Of a stretch of 64,000 nt of DNA, positions 38,212-52,621 are shown in pieces. Position 1 is the stretch's first letter. Every line of letters starts with the position of its first letter. Below the pieces are notes generated by a model. The model did no database searches, was not told the origin of the DNA, and saw only the letters and a list, made by a program, of their open reading frames with translations. Where the stretch lies: the NCBI GenBank assembly GCA_030647255.1, contig JAUSJK010000048.1, positions 32,540 through 96,539 on the forward strand, read 5' to 3'. Source of the DNA: a bacterium. Lineage in GTDB: Bacteria > Patescibacteriota > Microgenomatia > UBA1406 > GWC2-37-13. Made by a program: the position numbers and the translations under genes.

Positions 38212-39186
38212 CTATACGATTACTTTTTTCAGTTCTTCGATAGTGAGACGTTTTTCAGACTGTAGTGTACGTATTTGTTTTACCCGATGAATCATATCTT
38301 GATGATAGAGTTGATATCCTCCTGGAGAATACTTTTTTACTCGCAATAAACCTTCATTTGTCCAGAACCGAATTGTCGGAACAGTCTCTTCGGTCATTTT
38401 GGCCAATTCTCCAATTTTAAGCAGTGCATCTGACTTCTCGATTATTTCTTTCGGTTCGAGTGACTCGAGATAGATTAACACCGATCTTTCGACAGCCAAG
38501 AACATGAGAGGAATGTAATCTGAAAGATCGCCGGATAGTTGTCCCTTTTCAATACTATTAATATAGACTTTCCTATCTTCTTTGCGGATTATTGCGGGTG
38601 GATAGCCTGCCTGCATAAGGATCAAGTTCATAAGTAAGCGCGCTGTTCTTCCGTTTCCGTCGGTAAAGGGATGAATGCTCACAAATGTATAGTGAGCGCG
38701 TAATGCCACATCTATGATATCGTTATTGGTGTTATGAAGCCAATCGATCAATTCCTTCATCAAGTCAGGCACTTTCAGGGCATTGGGCATAACTACGGAA
38801 GAGCCGGCAATGCGGACGGGCACATTCCTATATCGTCCTGCATTTGTCGTGTCAATATCTCGCAAGATGAGAGAGTGAATATCTCTGATAGTACGCTCTG
38901 TAATATTCTTTTTCGTCTTATTTTTGAGAGACATAATATAGTCCCAGGCTTTTGCGTGATTGATAGCTTCGAGGTGTTCAACTATGGATTTTCCTTCTAC
39001 AGTGATGCCTTTTTCGACAACAAGCGCCGTCTCCTGCCGTGAGAGTGTATTACCCTCAATTGCATTAGACGTATAGGTGAGTTCCACCTTATACCATTCG
39101 TCCAGATTTTTTATAATCTCTTTAGGAAATGGCCGGTGAGCGTCGAGCCGTTTTTTTAATTCATGGAGCCGAGACAGTGTTACCAT
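38212..39186 (-). CDS. Fic-domain protein (class II, self-inhibited) fused to a C-terminal MerR-type HTH
   Basis: Inhibitory motif TSNAIEGN ((S/T)xxxE(G/N)). Fic motif HPFTDGNGRTARLL. C-terminus LKIGELAKMTEETVPTIRFWTNEGLL...GGYQLY (MerR HTH). Confidence 0.8.
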   Translation of the reverse strand: MVTLSRLHELKKRLDAHRPFPKEIIKNLDEWYKVELTYTSNAIEGNTLSRQETALVVEKGITVEGKSIVEHLEAINHAKAWDYIMSLKNKTKKNITERTIRDIHSLILRDIDTTNAGRYRNVPVRIAGSSVVMPNALKVPDLMKELIDWLHNTNNDIIDVALRAHYTFVSIHPFTDGNGRTARLLMNLILMQAGYPPAIIRKEDRKVYINSIEKGQLSGDLSDYIPLMFLAVERSVLIYLESLEPKEIIEKSDALLKIGELAKMTEETVPTIRFWTNEGLLRVKKYSPGGYQLYHQDMIHRVKQIRTLQSEKRLTIEELKKVIV

Positions 39187-39252: not shown

Positions 39253-39404
39253 GTCAATTGAAAACCCCAGCCCTTTCCAGTAACCTATTGGTATTAAAAG
39301 AAAACCATTTTATCAATCATATGGAAACAACAAAAATTGCTTTATTCAAAGGAAGAAAAATACGAAAAACTCTCTATCAAGACGAATGGTGGTTTTCTGT
39401 AATA
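39253..39404 (+). repeat. direct repeat R1: duplicated upstream region plus first 28 codons of the Bro-N gene
   Basis: About 95% identical to 41898-42048, including ATGGAAACAACAAAAATTGCTTTATTCAAAGGAAG. Homology ends at ...TTCTGTAATA. Confidence 0.9.
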
Positions 39405-39460
39405 CAGTTGACGTCTCTCTTGCTAATATCAACAAAATAGCATATAATGTTGACATTACT

Positions 39461-40642
39461 ATGAACAATATCAACTCAGTACAAATAGGCAGGTATATCA
39501 AGCAAAAAGAAGGTTATGGAGCCTTCACGCCTTTTGATTTTCCTCCAAAAGATGGCTTAATGATGAGCCCAAAATTGTATAAAAAAAACGAGGAGGCAAT
39601 ACGATTAGTCGGTAAACTCGATGGCATCACGAGACTCTTGCCGGACAAGAACTTTTTCCTCAAGATGTTTATAAAAAAAGATGCCGCTTATTCTAGTCAG
39701 ATTGAAGGCACGAAGGCAACTTTACAAGACGCAGTAGCGGCGCCAGTTACCGAAGAAAAATCTCGGCTCCCCGCTGACGTTGACGACATTAATCATTATG
39801 TCAACGCGGTAAATTATGGCATCGAAAGAACCAAGACCTTGCCGATTTCTCTGAGACTCATAAGAGAAATACATGAGCGACTGATGACCGGTGCACGTTC
39901 GACACAGCATGCATACCCAGGCGAGTTTCGACATTCCCAGAATTGGATAGGAGGCAGGGCTCCTACAGATGCTTCTTTCGTACCTCCTGCCCCGCATGAT
40001 ATGTATAAATCATTAGATGATCTGGAAAAATTTATCCATGCAATAGATGACTATCCATCGTTGGTAAAAGTTGGATTGATCCATGCGCAGTTTGAAACTA
40101 TTCACCCGTTTACTGACGGTAATGGTCGAACAGGACGAATGTTGATAGTCATGTATATTCACCACGCCGGACTTTTAGAAATACCGGTATTGTACTTATC
40201 AAGCTATTTTAAAAAGTATCAAAAACTCTATTATCAAAAATTACAAAGTTATCATGATGCGAATGCCCAGGTTGATGCTTGGCTGGAGTTCTTTTTGGAA
40301 GGCGTAGCAGAAATTGCAGATGCTTCAATCGAAATTTGTACTAAGATAACTGCACTACGAGACTTAGATTTTGCCAAAATGCAAAAACTTGGCAAAAAAT
40401 CGGCTGAGTCCACTTTGGAAATAATCCGTAAACTATTTGGTCAGCCAATTGTCGGCGTTGCGGAGATAATGAAGTGGACGGGTTTTAGTCCACAGGGTGC
40501 ATATAATGTGATCAAGCGACTTGAGAATTTAAAAATCCTTGAACCTCTTGGTGATGCTGTTTATGGGCAGAAATATATTTACGCTGACTACTATGAAATA
40601 TTTGACGATGGATTTAGAGAAGCAAGGGCGAAGAAAAAATAA
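39461..40642 (+). CDS. Fic family protein (Fic_N + Fic + C-terminal wHTH architecture)
   Basis: SSQIEG inhibitory motif and HPFTDGNGRTGRML. The ATG at 39461 is used because the tracked longer ORF starts inside the repeat scar. Confidence 0.8.
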   Translation: MNNINSVQIGRYIKQKEGYGAFTPFDFPPKDGLMMSPKLYKKNEEAIRLVGKLDGITRLLPDKNFFLKMFIKKDAAYSSQIEGTKATLQDAVAAPVTEEKSRLPADVDDINHYVNAVNYGIERTKTLPISLRLIREIHERLMTGARSTQHAYPGEFRHSQNWIGGRAPTDASFVPPAPHDMYKSLDDLEKFIHAIDDYPSLVKVGLIHAQFETIHPFTDGNGRTGRMLIVMYIHHAGLLEIPVLYLSSYFKKYQKLYYQKLQSYHDANAQVDAWLEFFLEGVAEIADASIEICTKITALRDLDFAKMQKLGKKSAESTLEIIRKLFGQPIVGVAEIMKWTGFSPQGAYNVIKRLENLKILEPLGDAVYGQKYIYADYYEIFDDGFREARAKKK

Positions 40643-40750: not shown

Positions 40751-41749
40751 ATGAAAAACTTACAACTTCAATCACAAATAATTATCTATAAAACAGAAAC
40801 AGGCGAGACCAAAATTGACGTGCGGTTTGATGGAGACACGGTCTGGTTGAGTCAGGATGAAATGGCTCGACTCTTTGATAAAGGCCGTTCAACTATTGCA
40901 GAACATATTGTTAAAGTATTTAAGGAAAAAGAACTAGTAGAGGGATCAGTATGTCGGGAATTCCGACGTACTGGCGCTGACGGAAAAGAATATCAGGTAC
41001 AATACTACAATCTCGATGTTATTATCTCCGTTGGTTACCGAGTCAAATCACTCCGTGGTACTCAATTTCGCATTTGGGCAACCAAGCATCTGCGCGAATA
41101 TATCGTCAAAGGTTTTGTGATGGATGATGAACGACTGAAAAACCCCGATTTGCCATTTGATTATTTTGAAGAACTCACTCGTCGTATTGCGGACATTCGT
41201 ACTTCAGAAAAAAGATTTTATAGAAAAATTACTGATATTTATGCTACCAGTGTTGATTACGATCCTACAGACGAGAAGAGTATTCTCTTTTTCAAAACGG
41301 TCCAAAATAAAGTGCATTATGCAATTACCGGAAATACTGCGGCGGAGATAATTGCCAGTAGAGTAGATAGTAAAAAACCAAATGTAGGTCTCACAAACTT
41401 TAGGGGTAGCAAGCCAACAAAAGAAGAATTGGTGATCGCCAAAAATTATTTAAGTGAGCAGGAACTTCTCATTTTAAATAATCTTGTCGAGCAGTATCTC
41501 GTATTTGCCGAAGGACAGGCCATGCAGAGGGTGCCAATGTATATGAAGGACTGGATAGATAAACTCCACGCATTTTTACAGATTAACAATAAAAATATTT
41601 TGAAAGATGCAGGTAAAATTTCCCATGAGTTGGCGGTAGAAAAAGCGGAAAAGAATTTTGATGAATATAAAAAAAGCGAAGCAAAAAAATTGGACAATGA
41701 TTTTGATTCGGCAGCCTTGCGTGCGCTGAAAATAGCGAAGAAAAAATAA
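40751..41749 (+). CDS. RhuM-family protein
   Basis: IIYKTETGETKIDVRFDGDTVWLSQDEMARLFDKGRSTIAEHI...YNLDVIISVGYRVKS is the characteristic RhuM N-terminus. Confidence 0.8.
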   Translation: MKNLQLQSQIIIYKTETGETKIDVRFDGDTVWLSQDEMARLFDKGRSTIAEHIVKVFKEKELVEGSVCREFRRTGADGKEYQVQYYNLDVIISVGYRVKSLRGTQFRIWATKHLREYIVKGFVMDDERLKNPDLPFDYFEELTRRIADIRTSEKRFYRKITDIYATSVDYDPTDEKSILFFKTVQNKVHYAITGNTAAEIIASRVDSKKPNVGLTNFRGSKPTKEELVIAKNYLSEQELLILNNLVEQYLVFAEGQAMQRVPMYMKDWIDKLHAFLQINNKNILKDAGKISHELAVEKAEKNFDEYKKSEAKKLDNDFDSAALRALKIAKKK

Positions 41750-41897: not shown

Positions 41898-42048
41898 GTC
41901 AATTGAAAACCCCAGCCCTTTCCAGTAACCTATTGGTATTAAAGAAAACCATTTTATCACTCATATGGAAACAACAAAAATTGCTTTATTCAAAGGAAGA
42001 AAAATCAGAAAAACTCTCTATCAAGATGCATGGTGGTTTTCTGTAATA
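41898..42048 (+). repeat. direct repeat R2 (intact copy, continuous with the Bro-N gene)
   Basis: See R1. A third partial copy, TTGAAAACCCCAGCCTTTTCTAGTAACCTATCGTATT, lies at 42810-42846. Confidence 0.9.
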
Positions 42049-42795
42049 GATGTAATTGAAGTCCTTACCGATAGTTTAAATTCCAACGATTACTGGTATA
42101 GAATGAAAATCCGTGTGAAGGATGAAGATAAAACTGAGTTATCGACAATTTGTCGACAACTGAAATTGGAATCTGCTGACGGAAAGAGATATGAAACCGA
42201 TTGTGCCGATACTGAAGGTATCTTTCGGATTATTCAATCTATTCCTTCTCCTAAGGCAGAGCCATTCAAACGCTGGCTTGCCAAAGTGGGTTATGAAAGA
42301 GTTCAGGAAATAGAAAATCCTGAACTAGCAACTAAACGCACGCGAACATTGTACAAACTTAAAGGTTATAGTGATGATTGGATAGAAAAACGAATGAGAG
42401 GCATCGCTATTCGAGAAGAACTCACTGACGAGTGGAAAAATCGTGGAGCCAGAGATGATAAAGATTATGAGATTTTGACAGCTGAAATTTCCAAGGCAAC
42501 TTTTGATGTGACTCCAAGTGAATATAAAAAAATTAAAGGCCTGAAGAGGGAAAACTTACGCGATCATATGGATGACTTTGAACTTATTTTTAACATGCTT
42601 AGTGAACGTGCCACAACCGAAATTCATCGTACTGAGGACTCAAAGGGTGTAACAAAACTCCGAAGCGATGCAAAAGCCGGAGGCGATATCGCAGGTGGGG
42701 CTAGAAAAAAGTTGGAAAAACGGCTTGGCCGTTCTGTAGTATCAGAGAAGAATTTTCTCAATAAGAAGGAAGATAACAAACAATTGAACAAATAA
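41965..42795 (+). CDS. Bro-N domain protein (prophage antirepressor-like)
   Basis: ALFKGRKIRKTLYQDAWWFSVIDVIEVLTDS...GIFRIIQSIPSPKAEPFKRWLAKVG has the Bro-N pattern. Confidence 0.75.
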   Translation: METTKIALFKGRKIRKTLYQDAWWFSVIDVIEVLTDSLNSNDYWYRMKIRVKDEDKTELSTICRQLKLESADGKRYETDCADTEGIFRIIQSIPSPKAEPFKRWLAKVGYERVQEIENPELATKRTRTLYKLKGYSDDWIEKRMRGIAIREELTDEWKNRGARDDKDYEILTAEISKATFDVTPSEYKKIKGLKRENLRDHMDDFELIFNMLSERATTEIHRTEDSKGVTKLRSDAKAGGDIAGGARKKLEKRLGRSVVSEKNFLNKKEDNKQLNK

Positions 42796-43006: not shown

Positions 43007-44689
43007 ATGGATATCACTAAAATGACTTTTGGAAAAACATCTGAATATCTTACGATAGGCGAGGTTTCTAAGTTATTTCATATCCATCAAGATACTCTTA
43101 GGAACTGGGAGAAAAGTGGCGAATTAGTTCCTCTGCGAGTTGGCCCACGTAAGGATCGCAAATATCGTAAGCAAGACATAGAAACAATTATTGCCAAAAT
43201 GGGAAGTAAGCTCACGCTGGCTCAACTCGAACAGTTTCTATGGAAAAGTGCCGACATATTGCGAGGCAAAATTGACAGCTCTGACTATAAAAAATATATC
43301 TTCGGGTTACTTTTTTACAAAAGAATTAGTGACGTTTGGGATGAAGAATACAAAAAAGTCATTGATGAATATAAAGACAAGACACTCGCTGAAGCTGAAT
43401 ATAACCACAGATTCCAAGTGCCAAAAGACTGCAAATGGGAAGTTATTACCCAGACATCAGAGAACATCGGCCAGAAACTCAATGATATTTTTGACAAAAT
43501 TACAAACGTAAATAGTCCAAAGCTGGATAAGATTTTTAATGATCTGGATTTTGCCAATAAGGATAGATTCCCCAATGAAACCATTCAAAGACTAGTAAAT
43601 CACTTCTCTCAATATAACTTTGGCAGTAATTACATCAGTTCTGATCTCTTGGGTGACGCTTACGAGTATTTAATCAAGCAATTTGCTGCAGATGCAGGGA
43701 AAAAAGGCGGCGAATTCTACACTCCACGAGAAGTTGAGCGAATCATCATAGGAATTGTTAAGCCTCATCAAAAAGACCATGTTTACGACCCGACAGTAGG
43801 TTCAGGAGGATTTCTTCTTGAAGCATATAACTACCTTAAAAATAGGTCGAATGAGCAAGTTGCACGAACACTTTACTTTTATGGACAGGAAATCAATATC
43901 AGTACCTTTGCTATTGCCAAAATCAACATGTTTTTACATGGACTGGATAGTTCAGATATAAGGCGTGGTGACACCCTGGCAAATCCGCAGTTCCTCAATA
44001 ATATGGGAAATTTACAAACTTTTGACATCGTGGTCGCTAACCCTCCGTATTCCATAAAAGATTGGGAGTTTGAACTATTCAAAAGCGACAAATATGGTCG
44101 TACCCAAGAGTATGAACTCCCTCCACAGAAAAACGCTGACTATGCTTTTGTACTCCACATACTTAAGTCATTGAACGTAAATGGTCGTGCTGGCATTGTG
44201 TTGCCTCATGGAGTCCTATTTAGAGGCGGTAGCGAAGGCCGAATCCGAGAACAGATTATCAAAAATGATCTTTTGGAAGCGGTTATTGGGCTTCCACCTA
44301 AACTTTTTTATGGAACTGGTATTCCAGCAGCAATTCTTATTTTCAATCGAAACAAAGCAGAAAACAAAAAAGGGAAAGTATTACTTATTGATGCGGAGCG
44401 TGATTTTCTTGAAGGAAAAAACCAAAATACTCTCAGAAAGCAGGATATAGACAAAATTATTAAGACTTACGATCAATATCAAGATGTCGAAAAGTACGCC
44501 AGAGTTGTTGATGTAAAAGAAATCGAAGAAAACGAATATAACCTCAATGTGAGGCGATACATTGATAGTAACGAAGAACAAGTTCAAATTGACGTAAAAC
44601 AAGTCTGGAAGGAACTACAAAATTTGGAAAAAGACAGAGAAGAAATCAACAAAAAAGTAGCAGATTTTATAAACGAGTTAGGATACTAG
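43007..44689 (+). CDS. hsdM: Type I R-M N6-adenine DNA methyltransferase subunit with an N-terminal MerR/excisionase-type HTH
   Basis: N-terminus LTIGEVSKLFHIHQDTLRNWEKSGELVPLRVGPRKDRKY (HTH). HsdM_N (LEQFLWKSADILRG). Motif I DPTVGSGGFL. Motif IV VANPPYS. Confidence 0.9.
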   Translation: MDITKMTFGKTSEYLTIGEVSKLFHIHQDTLRNWEKSGELVPLRVGPRKDRKYRKQDIETIIAKMGSKLTLAQLEQFLWKSADILRGKIDSSDYKKYIFGLLFYKRISDVWDEEYKKVIDEYKDKTLAEAEYNHRFQVPKDCKWEVITQTSENIGQKLNDIFDKITNVNSPKLDKIFNDLDFANKDRFPNETIQRLVNHFSQYNFGSNYISSDLLGDAYEYLIKQFAADAGKKGGEFYTPREVERIIIGIVKPHQKDHVYDPTVGSGGFLLEAYNYLKNRSNEQVARTLYFYGQEINISTFAIAKINMFLHGLDSSDIRRGDTLANPQFLNNMGNLQTFDIVVANPPYSIKDWEFELFKSDKYGRTQEYELPPQKNADYAFVLHILKSLNVNGRAGIVLPHGVLFRGGSEGRIREQIIKNDLLEAVIGLPPKLFYGTGIPAAILIFNRNKAENKKGKVLLIDAERDFLEGKNQNTLRKQDIDKIIKTYDQYQDVEKYARVVDVKEIEENEYNLNVRRYIDSNEEQVQIDVKQVWKELQNLEKDREEINKKVADFINELGY

Positions 44690-44690
44690 T

Positions 44691-45329
44691 ATGATATACA
44701 TCTTTCTGGACGAAAGCGGAGATCTTGGATTTAATCCATCAAAAAAGAATTCAAAATATTTCGTTATAACCGTTTTGGCAACAGAGGATAAGCGAAAGGT
44801 TGAAAAAGTAATAAAGAAAATTCATAGTTCTTTACGAAAAAAAACCAAGAAACTTTCCGGTGGCATACTTCACTGTTACAAAGAAAAACCTGCAACGAGG
44901 CATAAACTTCTCCAGAAACTTTCAGGTTTAAATATTCATATAATGACGATATATCTACATAAGGTAAAAGTATTCACGCATTTGCAAGACGAAAAGCATG
45001 TGTTATATAACTACGTTACAAATATTCTTCTGGACAGAATCATGTCGAAGAAACTGATCAATGTCGTAGCCAATGTTCACTTAATCGCGGCTAAGAGAGA
45101 AACTAATAAATTTTTAAATGATAATTTCTCCAACTATCTTAAGACCCAAGCTCGCGATAATCACAAAATACGGTTAGATATTGTGATCAGAACTCCATCA
45201 GAGGAAAAAGGAATACAAGCTGTAGACTTTGTGAGCTGGTCAGTATTTCGTAAGTATGAGCACGGAGACGCAGAATATTACAAAGAAATTAAAAATAAAA
45301 TTGTAGAGGAGAACGGACTGTTTAAATAG
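44691..45329 (+). CDS. DUF3800-family protein embedded in the Type I R-M operon
   Basis: The N-terminal IYIFLDESGDLGF is the DUF3800 hallmark. The ATG lies 1 nt after the hsdM stop. Confidence 0.65.
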   Translation: MIYIFLDESGDLGFNPSKKNSKYFVITVLATEDKRKVEKVIKKIHSSLRKKTKKLSGGILHCYKEKPATRHKLLQKLSGLNIHIMTIYLHKVKVFTHLQDEKHVLYNYVTNILLDRIMSKKLINVVANVHLIAAKRETNKFLNDNFSNYLKTQARDNHKIRLDIVIRTPSEEKGIQAVDFVSWSVFRKYEHGDAEYYKEIKNKIVEENGLFK

Positions 45330-45441: not shown

Positions 45442-46590
45442 ATGAAAAATAAAAATAATTGGACAGCATCAACAATCGGAGAATTATTTGAAGTTACCAA
45501 TGGAAAAACGAATACTGATGAAGCAGTTCTAAATGGTAAATATCCGCTGTTTGATCGTTCAATAGAAATAAAATATAGCGATAAGTTTCTGTTCGATACG
45601 GAGGCGGTTATCTTGCCGGGTGAGGGAAAAGATTTTATTCCACGATATTATATTGGGAAATTCGACCTACATCAACGGGCTTATGCAATCTTTCCAAAGA
45701 GCAAAATAGACCTGAGTCTAAAATTCTTATATTACTGGATGCTTTATAAAAGTCAGTACTTAACTAAAATGGCAGTTGGCTCAACAGTAAAGTCACTCAG
45801 ACTTTATATGTTAAAGAATTTTCCATTAGAGTTTCCCGATCATAAATCACAGGAGAAAATTACTAATTTCTTTGAATTGATTGACAAGAAACTCGCTAAG
45901 GCAGATCAGATTATTCAAAAGACTGAAACTTTGAAGCAGGGCTTAATGCTAGAATTACTCACGAAAGGACTCGGTCATAAAAAGTTTAAGAAAACAAAAA
46001 TTGGAGAAATTCCTGATGAATGGGAAGTAATGAGTGTGGGACAAATTTGTGATTGTATTGTTCCAGGGAGAAATAAACCTAAAATTTTTAATGGAGACAT
46101 TCCATGGATTACGATACCCAACATACAGGATTCAAGGATTCAATACAATGAAGCTACAAAATATGTTTCAAGACAAGAACTCAAAAATTGTGGAAATAAA
46201 ATAATACCAGCAAATTCAGTAATCATGTCATGTGTTGGTGATTTTGGTATCGTAGCTGTAACTGATAGGGAAATCGCCATTAATCAGCAATTACATGCTT
46301 TCTTGCCTTCAAGTAAATTAGATCAGAACTTTCTTAAATTTTCATTGATATTGCAAAAAGATTTCATGGAAAATTTGGCAACTAAAACTTCTGTACCTTA
46401 TCTGAATAAGACTAGCTGTAATTCTATTCCTATTGCTAAACCTTCTCTTGAGGAACAACGAAAAATAGGAACTATTTTGTTCTCCATAGATCATAAAATA
46501 TTAATTGAGAAAATGAATAAAGAAAAACTACAAATTCTTAAAAAAGGCCTCATGCAAGATATTTTTAGTCAGAAAGTTAAAATAAATTAA
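45442..46590 (+). CDS. hsdS: Type I R-M specificity subunit
   Basis: Two target-recognition halves are separated by the conserved helices TETLKQGLMLELLTKG and LQILKKGLMQDIFS. Confidence 0.85.
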   Translation: MKNKNNWTASTIGELFEVTNGKTNTDEAVLNGKYPLFDRSIEIKYSDKFLFDTEAVILPGEGKDFIPRYYIGKFDLHQRAYAIFPKSKIDLSLKFLYYWMLYKSQYLTKMAVGSTVKSLRLYMLKNFPLEFPDHKSQEKITNFFELIDKKLAKADQIIQKTETLKQGLMLELLTKGLGHKKFKKTKIGEIPDEWEVMSVGQICDCIVPGRNKPKIFNGDIPWITIPNIQDSRIQYNEATKYVSRQELKNCGNKIIPANSVIMSCVGDFGIVAVTDREIAINQQLHAFLPSSKLDQNFLKFSLILQKDFMENLATKTSVPYLNKTSCNSIPIAKPSLEEQRKIGTILFSIDHKILIEKMNKEKLQILKKGLMQDIFSQKVKIN

Positions 46591-46591
46591 T

Positions 46592-47239
46592 ATGAAACAT
46601 ACATGGAACGATGATCAAATTAGAGATTATCTAATAAATCATATTAAAAAATCAATAATAGATGATGTAGGTGGAGCATTGATAGGATGGTCAAGTCAGA
46701 TGCATAATAAAAAATACATAGCTGGATCTTTTGCCGTGCCACGAATGTTATTCCCAGAGATTGATGGTTTAGGCTCTTATATAACTGGTAATCCTAAATC
46801 TACCGGTTCGAATATAAAAACTTACATCTCAAACATTTTGGGAGAATCTAATCACAAATATAAAGAATTCGCAGGATTTATTGTTTTTATTTTCAGACAT
46901 GGGCTACTTCATCAACATCAACCAAAGGAATTTACACATAACAACAAGCAAATTGGTTGGGAGTTTCGAATTAGTGATCCAAATAATCCCATTGAAGTTA
47001 ACGAAAAATACCATTTAGAATTTAAAAGTGATGTATTAACAATAGATGCTAACATCTTTTATAGAGATATTGTCAATTCCGTTGAGGGTTTCGCAGAAGA
47101 TGTTATTACAAAATATAGAAGTACATTTGAAACTTCTCTTGATGCACAAATGAAATCTCTTACTAAAGAATCCTTGCTTAAAGAGGTGAAGTATTTGGAA
47201 GATACAGATTTTACATTTCTAGAAACCTATGAAATTTAA
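46592..47239 (+). CDS. uncharacterised 215-aa protein between hsdS and hsdR; candidate HEPN-like (RHGLLH = Rx4H)
   Basis: ATG 1 nt after the hsdS stop, and an 11-nt overlap with hsdR. No family was recognised. The only catalytic-looking motif is FIFRHGLLHQHQP (aa 100-112). Confidence 0.5.
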   Translation: MKHTWNDDQIRDYLINHIKKSIIDDVGGALIGWSSQMHNKKYIAGSFAVPRMLFPEIDGLGSYITGNPKSTGSNIKTYISNILGESNHKYKEFAGFIVFIFRHGLLHQHQPKEFTHNNKQIGWEFRISDPNNPIEVNEKYHLEFKSDVLTIDANIFYRDIVNSVEGFAEDVITKYRSTFETSLDAQMKSLTKESLLKEVKYLEDTDFTFLETYEI

Positions 47240-50189
47240 CGAACAATATACAGTCGAAAAACATGTCGTTAAATTCTTATCCCAAAACTTGGGTTATGAG
47301 TATATTACTCCTGAAGATTTTGCTGGTTTGAGAAGTCTGGAAAATGAATACCTGATAGTTTCTCATCTTATAGAAGCTGTAAAACGAATAAATAACATTA
47401 CAGATGATACTGAAATCCAAAGTGTTATCCGGGAAATAAGGAAAATTGATACAAATGAGGGCTTCTTAAAACTCCTGCGTAATGGCGTAAACCTGAAAGA
47501 TTCAGAAACAGGCAAAATGCGTGATTACATGATCGTGGGCTACGATAACCTCGAAAACAATCAATTTGTAGTCACAAATCAATTCTACTTTGAAGGCAAT
47601 CTGGAAAATATACGATCTGATATTTTGGTTTTCCTTAACGGTATTCCTGTCGTTGATATTGAGGCAAAAAGTCCCACCGCATCCACCAGTGTTAGTTATG
47701 AAAATGCGATTGGTCAAATAATACGTTACCAGCGAGTCGCTATGAAGCTATTCTGGCCTAACTGTTTTAATATTGCGACAGATGGCTTAAAAACTGTCTA
47801 TGCTACTACTTACGCACCAGAACAGTACTTCTTGCAATGGAGAGATCCCTCCTTCGCTAAAGCTTCGGCGGGCAAGGAAGATTTGGAGTCTGATACAGGA
47901 TTGGAATTGACGCTTACTTCTTTATTAGATAAAAGTAGACTCTTAGATATTATTAAAAATTTCATTGTCTTTGAACAGACAAAAGACGGTCGCATTAAAA
48001 AGATGGCTCGTTACCAACAACTTCGTGCCACAAATAAAATCGTCGAACGAGTGAAAAAGGGAGAGAAGAAACGAGGCTTAATTTGGCACACGCAGGGATC
48101 GGGAAAATCTCTAACAATGTTTTTTACCGCATGGAAGCTCAGGTTTGACGAGTCTCTCAAGAATCCAAAAGTATTTGTTCTTGTTGATCGAATCGACCTA
48201 GACAATCAGATTTATGATTCATTTATCAATGCAGGTGGTAAAAACGTAATTAGAGTTACCTCCCAGCGTGATCTTGCGAAGAAAATTACCAATGATGAAA
48301 GAGGAATCTTTATCTCTACTATCGAGAAATTTAATGAACTTCCACTACATCTTGAGAATCCTCATGAAAATATCATCATTCTTTCTGATGAGGCTCACAG
48401 GTCGAACGAGGGTGTTGCTGGAATTAAACTACGAGATTCGATGGGAAAGGCTTTCTTCTTCGGATTTACAGGTACACCAATTGATAAAACGACTCTTAAT
48501 ACTCACCGAAACTTTGGTGAAGAAGGAGAACGCTATCTTGACTACTACTCCATTCAACAAGCCATTGATGACGGAGCAACCTTACCAGTAACATATGAGG
48601 CTCGTCTTTCCAAATTCTTTATTGATGAAGAAAAAATTGACCAGCAATTTGATGAGATGACCACCGATTTATCAGATGAGCAAAAACAATTAGTCATGCG
48701 ACGCTATGGCAAGAAAGAAGCGCTTATAAAACTTGATAAACGCATGAGAGCTGTAGCTCAAGATATTGTAGATCACTACCGACTTTACATTGAGCCGAAT
48801 GGCTTTAAAGCTCAAGTCGTTTGCTATGACCGAGAAGCGACTGCCAAATTCAAACAATTATTCAACGATCTTATTCCAGCCGAATGGACAGAAGTGGTGT
48901 ATTCATCTGGTGATCCTAATACTGACTCGGAGAGCTTGAGAAAATATAATACCAGCAAAGCTCAAAGAGAAAAAATTATTGATAAGTTCAAAGACCCGAA
49001 AACTCCTCTTAAATTATTGTTAGTCTGCGATATGCTTTTAACTGGATTTGATGCCCAAATTGAACAAGCGATGTACCTGGATAAGCCTTTGCGAGATCAC
49101 AATTTATTGCAAGCGATTGCTCGGACAAACAGAGTTTATCCAAATAAGGGATGCGGAAAGATAATTGACTACTATGGAATCACAAGAAACCTCTACGAGG
49201 CTTTGAATTTCGATGAAAGTATTATCGACTCAGCACTTATTGATCTTGACCACTTGAAAAAGGAGTTTTTGGAAGTTTTAGGTGAAATAAAAGATATTTT
49301 TACTGGTATCAATCAAGAAGACCCATCTATTGAAAACTTGAGGAGATGCTTAAAAATATTCATTGATAACGAAGGCAAACAGCGATACTTCACAGATAAG
49401 TATTCCAGATTAAAGCTATTATTTGAAGTTTTGTCACCTGACCCATTCCTTGCTGATTACATTCGAACATTCAAATGGACTACCAGTGTCTATATTGCTT
49501 TCCTCAATGATTTCCGTCAAGAAAATTTTGCAATGGAGGCTTTCCGAAGCGGTGACATTCCAACCTTCGGGGAGTATGGTGAAAGAGTTAAAAAATTGAT
49601 TCAAGAACAAATCGACTATGAAGGAATTACTAAAAACTTCAGAGAGTTAAAAATAAACGATATTTATACTCTTGAACGACTCGACAAGATGGATGATGAA
49701 GAAAAAGCACTCAACTTAGAAAAGATGCTTAAACAAGAGATTTCTATAAACATTGATACAAACCCTGTATTTCAAAAGTTTAGTGAGAGATTAACAGCTA
49801 TTCGTAAAGAATTTGAACAGCACCAGATTGATCTTTCTGAACGAATCAAACGTTATTATGACTTAATGAACGATATTAAAAATAAATATGATGAAGCAAA
49901 GGAGTTAGGACTTAATTTGCAGGAATATGGATTATTTGTCATTTCTCAAGAGTTTTTACCCAAAACAGACCAGCCAATTCTGTTGAGTTTGTCTAAAGAC
50001 CTTTCAAAGAGATTGCAGGCTATTCTTGATGAGGGCTGGCAGTATTCATCTAAGCGTGAAGAATTTCTTAAAGGTGTAAAACAGACTATCCAAGAGTTGA
50101 TTTTGAAGGAATACAAAAAGAAACTACAAGTTAAAGATTTCCCTAAATTTTTAAACAGACTCGTTGACATTGTAATCAAGAAGTTCTAA
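47229..50189 (+). CDS. hsdR: Type I restriction enzyme R subunit
   Basis: N-terminal PD-(D/E)XK region (DILVFLNGIPVVDIEAK), Walker A HTQGSGKSLTM, DEAH box LSDEAHRS, motif VI QAIARTNR, 986 aa. Confidence 0.9.
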   Translation: MKFNEQYTVEKHVVKFLSQNLGYEYITPEDFAGLRSLENEYLIVSHLIEAVKRINNITDDTEIQSVIREIRKIDTNEGFLKLLRNGVNLKDSETGKMRDYMIVGYDNLENNQFVVTNQFYFEGNLENIRSDILVFLNGIPVVDIEAKSPTASTSVSYENAIGQIIRYQRVAMKLFWPNCFNIATDGLKTVYATTYAPEQYFLQWRDPSFAKASAGKEDLESDTGLELTLTSLLDKSRLLDIIKNFIVFEQTKDGRIKKMARYQQLRATNKIVERVKKGEKKRGLIWHTQGSGKSLTMFFTAWKLRFDESLKNPKVFVLVDRIDLDNQIYDSFINAGGKNVIRVTSQRDLAKKITNDERGIFISTIEKFNELPLHLENPHENIIILSDEAHRSNEGVAGIKLRDSMGKAFFFGFTGTPIDKTTLNTHRNFGEEGERYLDYYSIQQAIDDGATLPVTYEARLSKFFIDEEKIDQQFDEMTTDLSDEQKQLVMRRYGKKEALIKLDKRMRAVAQDIVDHYRLYIEPNGFKAQVVCYDREATAKFKQLFNDLIPAEWTEVVYSSGDPNTDSESLRKYNTSKAQREKIIDKFKDPKTPLKLLLVCDMLLTGFDAQIEQAMYLDKPLRDHNLLQAIARTNRVYPNKGCGKIIDYYGITRNLYEALNFDESIIDSALIDLDHLKKEFLEVLGEIKDIFTGINQEDPSIENLRRCLKIFIDNEGKQRYFTDKYSRLKLLFEVLSPDPFLADYIRTFKWTTSVYIAFLNDFRQENFAMEAFRSGDIPTFGEYGERVKKLIQEQIDYEGITKNFRELKINDIYTLERLDKMDDEEKALNLEKMLKQEISINIDTNPVFQKFSERLTAIRKEFEQHQIDLSERIKRYYDLMNDIKNKYDEAKELGLNLQEYGLFVISQEFLPKTDQPILLSLSKDLSKRLQAILDEGWQYSSKREEFLKGVKQTIQELILKEYKKKLQVKDFPKFLNRLVDIVIKKF

Positions 50190-50761
50190 TGAAAAAACAG
50201 ATTAACCTGCACAATCGAGTCGTAAACTACTCTATCCGTAGAAGTAAAAGAGCCAAGCGGATGAGGCTAGCTGTTTATTGTGACGGTAACTTCATTGTTA
50301 CTGTTCCCCAAACTTTCCCCACAAATTCAATTGATAGATACGTTATCGCTAAATCGCAGTGGGTCATCTCTAAGCTCAATTTTTTTGAAGGACTTAACAA
50401 AAAGCAGAAATTAACTTTTGGAGATAATGGATACGAGAAGTATAAGGAAAAAGCATTAGAAATGATTATCAAAAGACTGACAGCTCTTAATAAAACGCAT
50501 TATCAGTTCAAATTCAATAAATTAACAATCAGGAATCAAAAAACTCGTTGGGGAAGCTGCTCTAAGAAACGAAACCTTAACTTTAACTATAAAATATTAT
50601 TCCTGCATCCAAAGATAAGAGACTATATTATGATTCACGAACTATGTCATCTGAAAGAATTTAACCACTCGAAGAAATATTGGTCATTGGTAGAGAAAGC
50701 TCTTCCAAATTTTAAGAATGTCCAAGAGGAACTGAAAGTACACGGAATATTGTTAGGATGA
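50189..50761 (+). CDS. DUF45/YgjP-like (M48/SprT-like) zinc metallopeptidase
   Basis: KTRWGSCS...IMIHELCHLKEFNHSKKYW contains an HExxH motif. The start overlaps the hsdR stop (TAATG). Confidence 0.8.
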   Translation: MKKQINLHNRVVNYSIRRSKRAKRMRLAVYCDGNFIVTVPQTFPTNSIDRYVIAKSQWVISKLNFFEGLNKKQKLTFGDNGYEKYKEKALEMIIKRLTALNKTHYQFKFNKLTIRNQKTRWGSCSKKRNLNFNYKILFLHPKIRDYIMIHELCHLKEFNHSKKYWSLVEKALPNFKNVQEELKVHGILLG

Positions 50762-50791: not shown

Positions 50792-51547
50792 ATGTCAAAA
50801 TACTACAACCCCAACCGGAAAAAGTATCTTTATGACTCTTTATCCAAAGAGACATTTAGATTGAGTCGGTCGAAGATAGACCTATTTCTTAATTGCCCCC
50901 GCTGTTTTTATCTTGATCGTAAACTTGGTGTCGCTCAACCGCCTGGGTATCCTTTTTCTCTCAACTCTGCTGTCGATAAACTCCTTAAAAAAGAATTTGA
51001 TATTCACCGGGCAAATGAAACGGCGCACCCGTTGATGAGAGCCTATGGGATTGATGCGATACCTTTGCGTCATGAAAAAATTGACGAGTGGCGAGATGCA
51101 TTGAGGCGGGGAATTACGTATACGATCGCTGAGGAACATGTCGTGATCACAGGGGGAGTTGATGATGTGTGGGTCAATCCAAAAGGGGAGTTTTACATTG
51201 TGGATTACAAGGCGACTTCAAAAGAGGAAGAAGTGACTCTTGATGCCGACTGGCAGATCGGATACAAAAGGCAGATGGAGATATATCAATGGTTATTTCG
51301 TCAAAATGGATATACGGTTTCCTCGACGGGATATTTTGTCTACTGTAACGGGAACACGGACAAAGAAGCATTTGACGGAAAGCTCGAATTTAACATCAAG
51401 ATTATTCCATATGTCGGGGACGATGGGTGGGTTGAAAAAACTATTCTTTCTGCGATTGAATGTCTAAAAGGCGATCATATTCCTGAAATGGGCGCAGACT
51501 GTGATTATTGTAAGTACCGTGAAGCAGTCCGTCAGTTTGAAAAATGA
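50792..51547 (+). CDS. PD-(D/E)XK nuclease with Cas4/AddB-like Cys cluster
   Basis: N-terminal CPRCFY, core GGVDDVW...YIVDYKAT (D...D-x-K) and C-terminal C-x12-CDYC. Confidence 0.65.
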   Translation: MSKYYNPNRKKYLYDSLSKETFRLSRSKIDLFLNCPRCFYLDRKLGVAQPPGYPFSLNSAVDKLLKKEFDIHRANETAHPLMRAYGIDAIPLRHEKIDEWRDALRRGITYTIAEEHVVITGGVDDVWVNPKGEFYIVDYKATSKEEEVTLDADWQIGYKRQMEIYQWLFRQNGYTVSSTGYFVYCNGNTDKEAFDGKLEFNIKIIPYVGDDGWVEKTILSAIECLKGDHIPEMGADCDYCKYREAVRQFEK

Positions 51548-51586
51548 TATCTTTACTTTCGTCCATCTTTCGTCTATAATGTGTCT

Positions 51587-52621
51587 ATGTTTGAGCCTAA
51601 ATATACCATTACAGGGAAACTGCTGGAGAATATAAAACGTGTCAATCGACTCGTGAATGATCTTAACCAAAGACGGTTTTCTGATGTGGTTTTGGTTGAG
51701 CTCCAAAAGACTGCCGAGGCGACCTCGGCATTTGCTTCAACGAGTATCGAAGGCAATCCTTTGCCGTTGACCGACGTCAAACAGATATTGAAAACAAGAC
51801 CGCACAATTTGCGGGAAAGCGAGCAGGAAGTCGTCAACTACAACGAAGCCCTGCAGGAAATCAACACAGATTTAAAAAGAGGAAAGATCTCATTTAACAT
51901 TTCCCTGGTTTTGTCCATCCAAAGAAAAGTAATCAATACCATTTTTCCTCCGTTTCAATCCGGAAAACTGCGGACTCAACCGGTATTTGTAAATGACCCT
52001 CGTCTGCAGAAAACTGTCTACTGGCCTCCCGACGTGCAGGACGTACCCGGACTTATGGAAGACCTCATTGAATTTGTGCAAAAAAATAAACATATCATTG
52101 ATTCTTTGATACTTGCGGGCATTTTTCATAAGCAAATGGTGATTATTCATCCGTTTATGGATGGAAACGGAAGGGCATCTCGTCTTTTGACAAAGATTCT
52201 TCTAGCGGAAATGGGGCTGAATACATTTAATCTTTTCAGCTTTGAAAATTATTACAATAATAATGTCACTAGGTATTTTGAAATGGTTGGAGAGAGGGGC
52301 AATTATTACGATATTGAAAAAACAATAGATTTTACATTTTGGCTTGAGTATTTTACCGATGGCATAATTGATGAATTACTGCGGGTAGAGAAACTACTTC
52401 CACACGTCTTAATAAGTCCTCAGACGGAGCTTAAGTCATATCACCAAAAAATGTTACTTCATATCAGACAAAAAGGGTATATTACCGATCGTGAGTATGC
52501 AAAACTCGTTTTCCGTGCACGATCTACCCGTCATCTTGATTTTAAAAAACTAATCAGTCTTGGATTAATCGAAATGAAAGGTGAAAGTAAAGCAGCGCAC
52601 TATGTAGTAAAAGAAAAATAA
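51587..52621 (+). CDS. Fic family protein (third in window)
   Basis: STSIEGN inhibitory motif and HPFMDGNGRASRLL. The ATG at 51587 lies just after a TATAAT (51575-80). Confidence 0.8.
   Translation: MFEPKYTITGKLLENIKRVNRLVNDLNQRRFSDVVLVELQKTAEATSAFASTSIEGNPLPLTDVKQILKTRPHNLRESEQEVVNYNEALQEINTDLKRGKISFNISLVLSIQRKVINTIFPPFQSGKLRTQPVFVNDPRLQKTVYWPPDVQDVPGLMEDLIEFVQKNKHIIDSLILAGIFHKQMVIIHPFMDGNGRASRLLTKILLAEMGLNTFNLFSFENYYNNNVTRYFEMVGERGNYYDIEKTIDFTFWLEYFTDGIIDELLRVEKLLPHVLISPQTELKSYHQKMLLHIRQKGYITDREYAKLVFRARSTRHLDFKKLISLGLIEMKGESKAAHYVVKEK

Follow-up and report, generated by a model that had tools for sequence, protein, structure and literature searches.

Closest described systems and the gene in the window

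Back-up toxins built into restriction-modification (R-M) systems form a recognised theme that includes PrrC and at least 16 clades of HEPN proteins, very few of which have been tested. HEPN RNases cleave RNA without the help of a metal, leave a 2',3'-cyclic phosphate, and work as dimers with a composite active site. Here we describe a candidate of this general kind, the 215-amino-acid (aa) product of a gene that we call X, which lies between hsdS and hsdR in a type I R-M operon of a Patescibacteriota bacterium (GenBank assembly GCA_030647255.1, contig JAUSJK010000048.1, positions 32,540 to 96,539; this whole stretch of 64,000 nucleotides (nt) is referred to below as the window). To our knowledge, no R-M back-up toxin that has been tested is as small as X or lacks a regulatory NTPase.

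The closest comparison is with PrrC of the Escherichia coli prr locus (EcoprrI, type IC). As in that case, gene X is found within a type I hsd operon, between hsdS and hsdR, and its product carries a motif of the Rx4-6H type and is proposed to be a latent second-line effector (PMC3710099, PMC12707154). PrrC is, however, about twice the length of X and has an N-terminal ABC-type ATPase that regulates its nuclease, whereas X has no P-loop, shows no detectable sequence or profile similarity to PrrC or to any other HEPN family, and contains a beta subdomain. The hallmark of PrrC and RloC, an N-terminal ABC/Rad50-like NTPase fused to a C-terminal anticodon nuclease (ACNase) domain, is not found in X. 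PrrC is held latent by the R-M complex until a phage anti-restriction factor activates it. A looser likeness is to PARIS (AriA/AriB), with which our proposal shares the idea that the disabling of restriction by anti-restriction proteins sets off an effector (PMC12707154), but the X locus has no ATPase sensor, no Toprim effector, and no homology to that system.

The reading that we favour, tentatively and at somewhat less than an even chance, is that X is a new HEPN-like, metal-independent RNase effector that is coupled to HsdR and the R-M system, and that it is analogous rather than homologous to PrrC. X would be made together with HsdR and would be kept inactive in the uninfected cell, either by HsdR or by its own state. 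Were the R-M barrier to be overwhelmed or inhibited, X would be released and would cut RNA (tRNA, rRNA, or mRNA), with the result that translation stops. It would in this way serve as a second-line, "suicide" back-up of phage defence, as PrrC does in the prr locus. The toxicity, the RNase activity, and the latency of X are properties that we purely infer. HEPN-type effectors in R-M loci are already known; the novelty lies in the X family itself, in how small its proteins are, in the beta subdomain, and in the fixed linkage to hsdR. Because X is only about 200 aa long, has a structure that is predicted with confidence and a clear candidate active site, and always keeps its place before hsdR in this setting, it could be a tractable model for how the state of a restriction enzyme is passed to an abortive-infection effector, and it would bear on how genome-reduced Patescibacteria, which have few defences, layer their immunity.

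A family of small, unannotated proteins

Homology searches show that X belongs to a real, deep family that has not been described before; its members are proteins of about 200 aa, and more than 200 relatives were found. A word-indexed search returned 22, all unnamed and mostly from metagenome-assembled genomes (MAGs) of Patescibacteria, and an exhaustive phmmer search of 1.84 billion cluster representatives returned 148 at E < 1e-3. When a family profile was searched against a database of 5.8 billion proteins, there were 119 matches, many of them new, and none provided a bridge to annotated families (all are without Pfam domains except two ankyrin-repeat fusions). The majority of the relatives are from Patescibacteria MAGs, and the rest are from Bdellovibrionales, Omnitrophota, and proteobacterial MAGs as well as one archaeal MAG. 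Homologues that are longer than X have N-terminal extensions without domains, and in the case of a 256-aa homologue encoded next to BrnT, the start was probably mis-called.

One divergent branch (loci L032-L036; proteins P0173, P0176, P0203, and P0204) has the motif RHSLxHTDEL. Its members are found alongside BrnT and MqsA-like genes, in islands that vary between strains and are made up of small unannotated genes, and in two clusters they are fused to long ankyrin-repeat arrays.

An earlier account of this DNA, made from the letters alone (the sequence-only reading), recognised no known family in X, and the databases agree. Single-sequence hmmscan of X gave no family match in Pfam (2025 copy), NCBIfam (version 20), or PADLOC (version 2.0), so that X, being absent from all three, would add an unannotated family to the catalogues of defence systems. 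Among PDB sequences, phmmer with X and a search with the family profile yielded only noise (e.g., serpin, RecQ1). Four family members used as tblastn queries had no match in a phage collection (50,697 records) or in plasmid collections, a scan of viral contigs found no relative, and our literature search found no published description of the family. Only two database objects show some likeness to X, and both are without annotation or function. The first is phrog_18591, which is the sole match in PHROGs and a weak one (hmmscan E 0.002, residues 69-182). The second is an uncharacterised protein of the Arthrobacter phage Nandita (A0A3G2KI42), which resembles X in a Foldseek comparison (E 0.036, prob 1.0, TM-score 0.44, 22% identity) and apart from which nothing in BFVD was significant when one of the models described below was used as the query. 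The statement in the sequence-only reading that X has neither a P-loop nor a transmembrane segment also holds: the Walker A pattern ([AG]x4GK[ST]) is absent from the 215 aa, there is no match to an AAA or ABC family in Pfam, and the maximum 19-residue Kyte-Doolittle mean is 0.8.

A nearly invariant R-[H/N]-x3-H motif

The only catalytic-looking element that had been picked out in X was an Rx4H motif (R102 and H107), which falls within FIFRHGLLHQHQP (residues 99-111). It had been cautioned at the time that a motif of six residues may arise by chance, and shuffles of the X sequence bear out its weakness in a single protein. Of the shuffled sequences, 22% contain Rx4H, 53% contain Rx4-6H, and 4% contain the stricter R[NHD]xxxH; the presence of the motif in one sequence is weak evidence.

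The situation is different across the family. We built a deep alignment of 142 members, mostly 20-30% identical to X and with a mean column identity of 10%, in which only seven columns are at least 90% conserved, namely Y90, R102, H103 (H or N), H107, H141, L142, and D159. R102 and H107 are each conserved in 99% of the sequences. At position 103, 91% have H and 8% have N, whereas H141, L142, and D159 are each conserved in 92%. Two further positions are conserved by type (an acidic residue, D or E, at position 58 in 92%; a basic one, K or R, at position 112 in 87%). The motif is not a product of chance, because it is conserved across 142 divergent members, and this is clearly the opposite of the non-conservation that had been set beforehand as the finding that would tell against it. 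Given that the residue after R102 is H or N, the motif takes the canonical HEPN form, R-phi-x3-H with a polar phi.

The same residues stand out at other depths. In the 21 closest sequences, R102, G104, L106, H107, Q108, H109, P111, and K112 are invariant, as is an upstream box (R51, F54, P55, E56, D58, L60, and G61). In a 79-sequence alignment centred on the RHSLxHTDEL branch, the R, both H, the Y, and the D are again invariant. Judged from these alignments, X carries what looks like an active-site constellation centred on R-[H/N]-x3-H.

Predicted structure and the HEPN question

Structures of X and of its relative P0176 (22% identical) were predicted with AlphaFold2 (AF2). The model of X has a pLDDT of 90.1 and a pTM of 0.87, and that of P0176, with a pLDDT of 94.1, has the same layout. 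X is predicted to begin with four helices (residues 7-40, 48-65, 71-86, and 88-104) and a loop. The chain continues with strands 114-116 and 119-126, helix 134-140, and strands 143-145 and 148-152, and it ends with helices 153-173, 176-186, 192-198, and 204-211. Overall, the predicted architecture has two lobes, a helical bundle and a four-stranded beta subdomain of about 40 residues (approximately residues 113-152). The fourth helix has R102 and H103 in its final turn, and H107 is in the loop that follows; in the P0176 model, helix 93-105 similarly holds R101 and H102, with H106 just beyond it.

This arrangement can be compared with that described in a 2013 survey of HEPN domains, in which core helix 3 bears the motif at its end, where the loop to helix 4 begins; helix 2 contributes a conserved acidic residue in those proteins that have one, and the R of the motif is followed by a polar residue (PMC3710099). 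In X, D58 lies in the predicted second helix, and both models have one extra helix (71-86) between helix 2 and the helix that bears the motif. If this extra helix is read as an insert, X would fit each point of the survey in its sequence and predicted secondary structure. What X shares with HEPN families, especially HepT and the small R-M-linked ones (Ymh/PF09509, DUF4145, Abi2-like), is R-phi-x3-H with polar phi at a predicted helix end, a candidate counterpart of the acidic residue of helix 2, a helical N-terminal bundle, and a context of R-M, toxin-antitoxin (TA), and defence islands.

Several results weigh against the HEPN-like reading. When the two high-confidence models were compared by Foldseek with 350,542 PDB chains, which include many HEPN structures, there was no HEPN structure among the 62 and 92 matches listed, although Foldseek is weak on short helical bundles and a missing HEPN match is therefore no firm exclusion. 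The best matches had E values of 0.76 and 0.049 and TM-scores of about 0.2, and none was significant. Profile methods agree: hmmscan of the 142 members against Pfam gave nothing usable, and no HEPN family even at E values up to 10, the family profile found nothing in PDB sequences, and hhalign against a Ymh-HEPN profile that we built ourselves gave a probability of 1%, with only a 14-column match between the post-motif helices. HEPN domains are all-alpha, four-helix up-down bundles. The beta subdomain, some 40 residues that separate the motif from the next long helix, is foreign to HEPN, and the near-invariant H141 and D159 (and also Y90) are not HEPN features. The set H103, H107, H141, and D159 could equally be a metal site. 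Lastly, about half of the loci surveyed below lie outside R-M systems, and in those loci X has no evident antitoxin-like partner.

X thus shows the sequence-level hallmarks of HEPN, but it fails the structural and profile tests applied here and is not an established member of the group. The earlier suggestion of a HEPN-like RNase is partly supported, by the invariant motif, by its predicted placement at a helix end, and by the conserved acidic residue in predicted helix 2, but no link to HEPN by fold or profile was found. The more specific idea of a minimal, purely helical HEPN bundle is contradicted by the four-stranded beta subdomain of the AF2 models and by the additional invariant residues Y90, H141, and D159.

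The lack of any structural or profile link to HEPN is also what speaks for a different reading, namely that X is an enzyme whose alpha+beta fold is new and not that of HEPN, and in which R-H-x3-H is convergent, for example, a metal-dependent nuclease or phosphohydrolase. Its ligands would be H103, H107, H141, and D159 (possibly D58), and its substrate would be DNA, RNA, or a nucleotide, acted upon alongside the R-M enzyme. Three near-invariant His residues and an Asp are a classic set of metal ligands, and the predicted two-lobed architecture, with a helical bundle and a beta sheet, suits such an enzyme. Moreover, the weak Foldseek matches repeatedly include two-lobed nucleases (MspJI, BamHI, Avs4, and the arenavirus L endonuclease) and an HD-like PPX domain, but these matches are insignificant (E > 0.3, TM-score < 0.2, root-mean-square deviation 12-17 Å). 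The substitutions also fit metal binding less well: 8% of the sequences have N in place of H103 and about 5% have N or Q in place of H141, which suits hydrogen-bonding or acid-base roles better. In addition, the helix is broken at position 104 by G, S, or P, and H103 and H107 therefore do not form an i/i+4 helical pair. On these grounds we mildly favour an acid-base (HEPN-like) site over metal ligation, and we consider the new-fold enzyme an alternative, albeit a rather unlikely one.

A nuclease of the PD-(D/E)XK type was tried as a candidate and rejected. The strands have no conserved acidic residue or Lys, and thus no PD-(D/E)XK signature (the only conserved residues in or near them are G122, W123, H141, L142, and L149), and the Foldseek matches to nucleases are insignificant.

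Coupling to hsdR and the loci of relatives

In the window, gene X is tightly coupled on both sides, as had been noted from the sequence. Only 1 nt separates the stop codon of hsdS from the ATG of X, and the ATG of hsdR, at 47229, is inside the 3' end of X, giving an overlap of 11 nt. X is presumably co-transcribed, and probably co-translated, with HsdR.

The context survey covered 42 fetched loci, which correspond to approximately 25 distinct places, several of them uninformative. Nine distinct loci have X in a type I operon: the window, L001 (Daviesbacteria, plus copies), L005, L012 (a Bdellovibrionales MAG), L017, L018/L019, L020, L021, and L042. In all of these but L017, where X is one gene removed from hsdR, it lies directly 5' of that gene (eight of the nine). 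The junction with hsdR is usually a 4-nt overlap (L001, L005, L018, L019, L021, and L042), compared with the 11 nt of the window and a 3-nt gap in L012. These operons represent at least three HsdR lineages, between which HsdR is only 28-35% identical, so that what the sequence-only reading called the PrrC slot turns out to be a conserved position.

Rates of divergence differ among the genes. In the close group, HsdR and HsdM are 77-91% identical to those of the window, whereas X is only 48-62% identical and diverges as fast as HsdS and YgjP; fast divergence of this sort is typical of conflict proteins. Farther away, HsdR is 28% identical to that of the window in L012 and 35% in L042 (28-37% for HsdR and HsdM together), yet X is still 41-45% identical. 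The uneven rate of X relative to HsdR and HsdM suggests cassette exchange between type I lineages. On the strength of these comparisons, X is a fast-evolving cassette that has repeatedly been joined to the 5' end of hsdR.

Relatives of X are also found well beyond type I operons. In L015, the gene is between an HSDR_N_2/N6_Mtase gene and an S gene (a type IIG-like R-M system), in L011 it follows an NgoFVII-like endonuclease and Vsr (type II), and in L037-39 it adjoins a Bsp6I type II system. Elsewhere it adjoins a Ppl defence gene (L007), or is found behind an 895-aa zinc-finger protein (L004/L008). In L016, which has no hsdR, a YgjP-like gene comes directly after it and an IS200-family transposase lies two genes before it. 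Silencing by HsdMSR, as had been suggested for X, does not hold as a general rule, given that many relatives sit outside type I loci. Across all of these places, X is a conserved gene, under constraint, and enriched in R-M and defence contexts.

In two of these loci the neighbours of X may be of interest in their own right. A Ymh (PF09509, HEPN) gene overlaps the start of the X homologue in L009 (9292-10600), outside an R-M operon, possibly as a two-effector pair. In L028 (7283-9531), in a single instance, the X homologue is between an HD-domain gene and a gene for a 2H (LigT-like) phosphoesterase. Enzymes of the 2H family act on RNA ends with a 2',3'-cyclic phosphate, which is the product expected of a HEPN-type RNase.

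The strict translational coupling to hsdR in many loci could also mean that X catalyses nothing and instead assists or regulates the restriction complex as one of its subunits, with conserved polar residues that serve for binding. It might then be an HsdR assembly factor, a restriction-alleviation factor, or an HsdR-binding sensor or adaptor. That X diverges at the pace of the specificity subunit and YgjP, and that there is no antitoxin-like gene in the operon, would be in keeping with such a role. It is harder to explain why R, H, and H should be 99% invariant, together with Y, H, and D, against a mean column identity of 10%, which is the pattern of an active site. Also, a single X clade is paired with HsdRs that share only 28-35% identity, and the family exists without HsdR, near type II R-M, Ppl, and Ymh genes, in TA-rich islands, and as ankyrin fusions. 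We therefore regard an accessory subunit as improbable.

The cassette-like spread of X over unrelated R-M types and defence islands raises another alternative, that X is an autonomous single-gene defence or toxin cassette that has lodged in R-M operons and defence islands and whose function does not depend on HsdR. The same operons do contain other variable cassettes (DUF3800 and unrelated genes for 82-279 aa), but these vary in position, whereas X is found immediately before hsdR in all but one of the type I loci, usually with a 4-nt, ATGA-type overlap. We think an autonomous cassette improbable, and it should be noted that this judgement overlaps with those on the other readings, as it concerns coupling and not chemistry.

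A bolder proposal can also be made. X may represent a new effector fold (a helical bundle and a beta meander), without a neighbour among solved structures, with an R-H-x3-H/Tyr/His/Asp site that arose independently of HEPN. It would be a compact, ATPase-free guardian that reads the state of HsdR directly, by co-translational assembly. R-M systems of types I, II, and IIG would trade it as a cassette, mainly those of ultra-small bacteria of the candidate phyla radiation (CPR). We hold this to be unlikely; if either the new fold or the direct sensing of HsdR were true, X would be of greater interest.

The island around gene X

R-M-linked HEPN domains are attached to the nuclease or helicase components and never to the methylase, and PrrC-like HEPN genes occur in loci that combine R-M with DOC/Fic and RhuM (PMC3710099). 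The window fits this pattern: its island of approximately 15 kb includes the type I R-M system, three separate Fic/DOC genes, RhuM, and Bro-N (Table 1), and X is on the nuclease/helicase side.

Table 1. Positions in the window of gene X, its conserved elements, and the surrounding genes
Feature	Position (nt)	Strand	Description
Fic+MerR	38212-39186	-	Fic/DOC gene fused to MerR helix-turn-helix (HTH)
Fic_N+Fic	39386-40642		Upstream part of island
RhuM	40751-41749		Upstream part of island
Bro-N	41965-42795		Upstream part of island
hsdM	43007-44689	+	N6_Mtase (1.3e-110), HsdM_N, N-terminal MerR-type HTH (MerR_1)
DUF3800 gene	44691-45329	+	DUF3800 (1.1e-14); between hsdM and hsdS
hsdS	45442-46590	+	Methylase_S (6.1e-42)
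Gene X	46592-47239	+	215-aa open reading frame, ATG start; member of unannotated family (R-[H/N]-x3-H, alpha+beta)
FPEID box of X	46751-46765	+	Codons F54-P55-E56-I57-D58; predicted helix 2; D58 is D/E in 92%
Candidate catalytic R-phi-x3-H motif of X	46895-46912	+	Codons R102-H103-G-L-L-H107 (R102, 46895-46897; H107, 46910-46912); end of helix 88-104 into loop
H141-L142 to D159 of X	47012-47068	+	Near-invariant (H141-L142, 47012-47017; D159, 47066-47068); around last two beta strands and start of helix 153-173
hsdR	47229-50189	+	HSDR_N, SWI2_SNF2, ResIII, T1R_D3-like
YgjP-like metallopeptidase	50189-50761	+	Starts on last base of hsdR stop codon
Cas4-like PD-(D/E)XK nuclease	50792-51547	+	
Fic/SoFic-like gene	51581-52621	+	Third Fic; NUDIX next in island

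The operon also holds a DUF3800 gene, which starts 2 nt past the stop codon of hsdM, and related operons have other extra genes (of 82, 209, 211, 245, and 279 aa) in equivalent slots. A conserved partner or antitoxin was sought among these. No homology was seen among the five extra genes that were compared with each other, and the accessory genes of related loci show none to the DUF3800 gene. Four that were scanned against PADLOC gave no match, and none of the extra genes of the related operons matched a Pfam family, including the 82-aa gene, for which Pfam was the only database scanned. Comparison of the operons suggests that these CPR type I operons act as landing pads for variable cassettes.

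Two other arrangements recur in related loci. The pairing of hsdR with YgjP is seen again in L001, L005, L017, and L018. The HsdM of the window has its MerR-type HTH at residues 14-64 (with the MerR_1 match at residues 16-61), the same fusion is present in L001 and L005, and this HTH may give the operon autoregulation.
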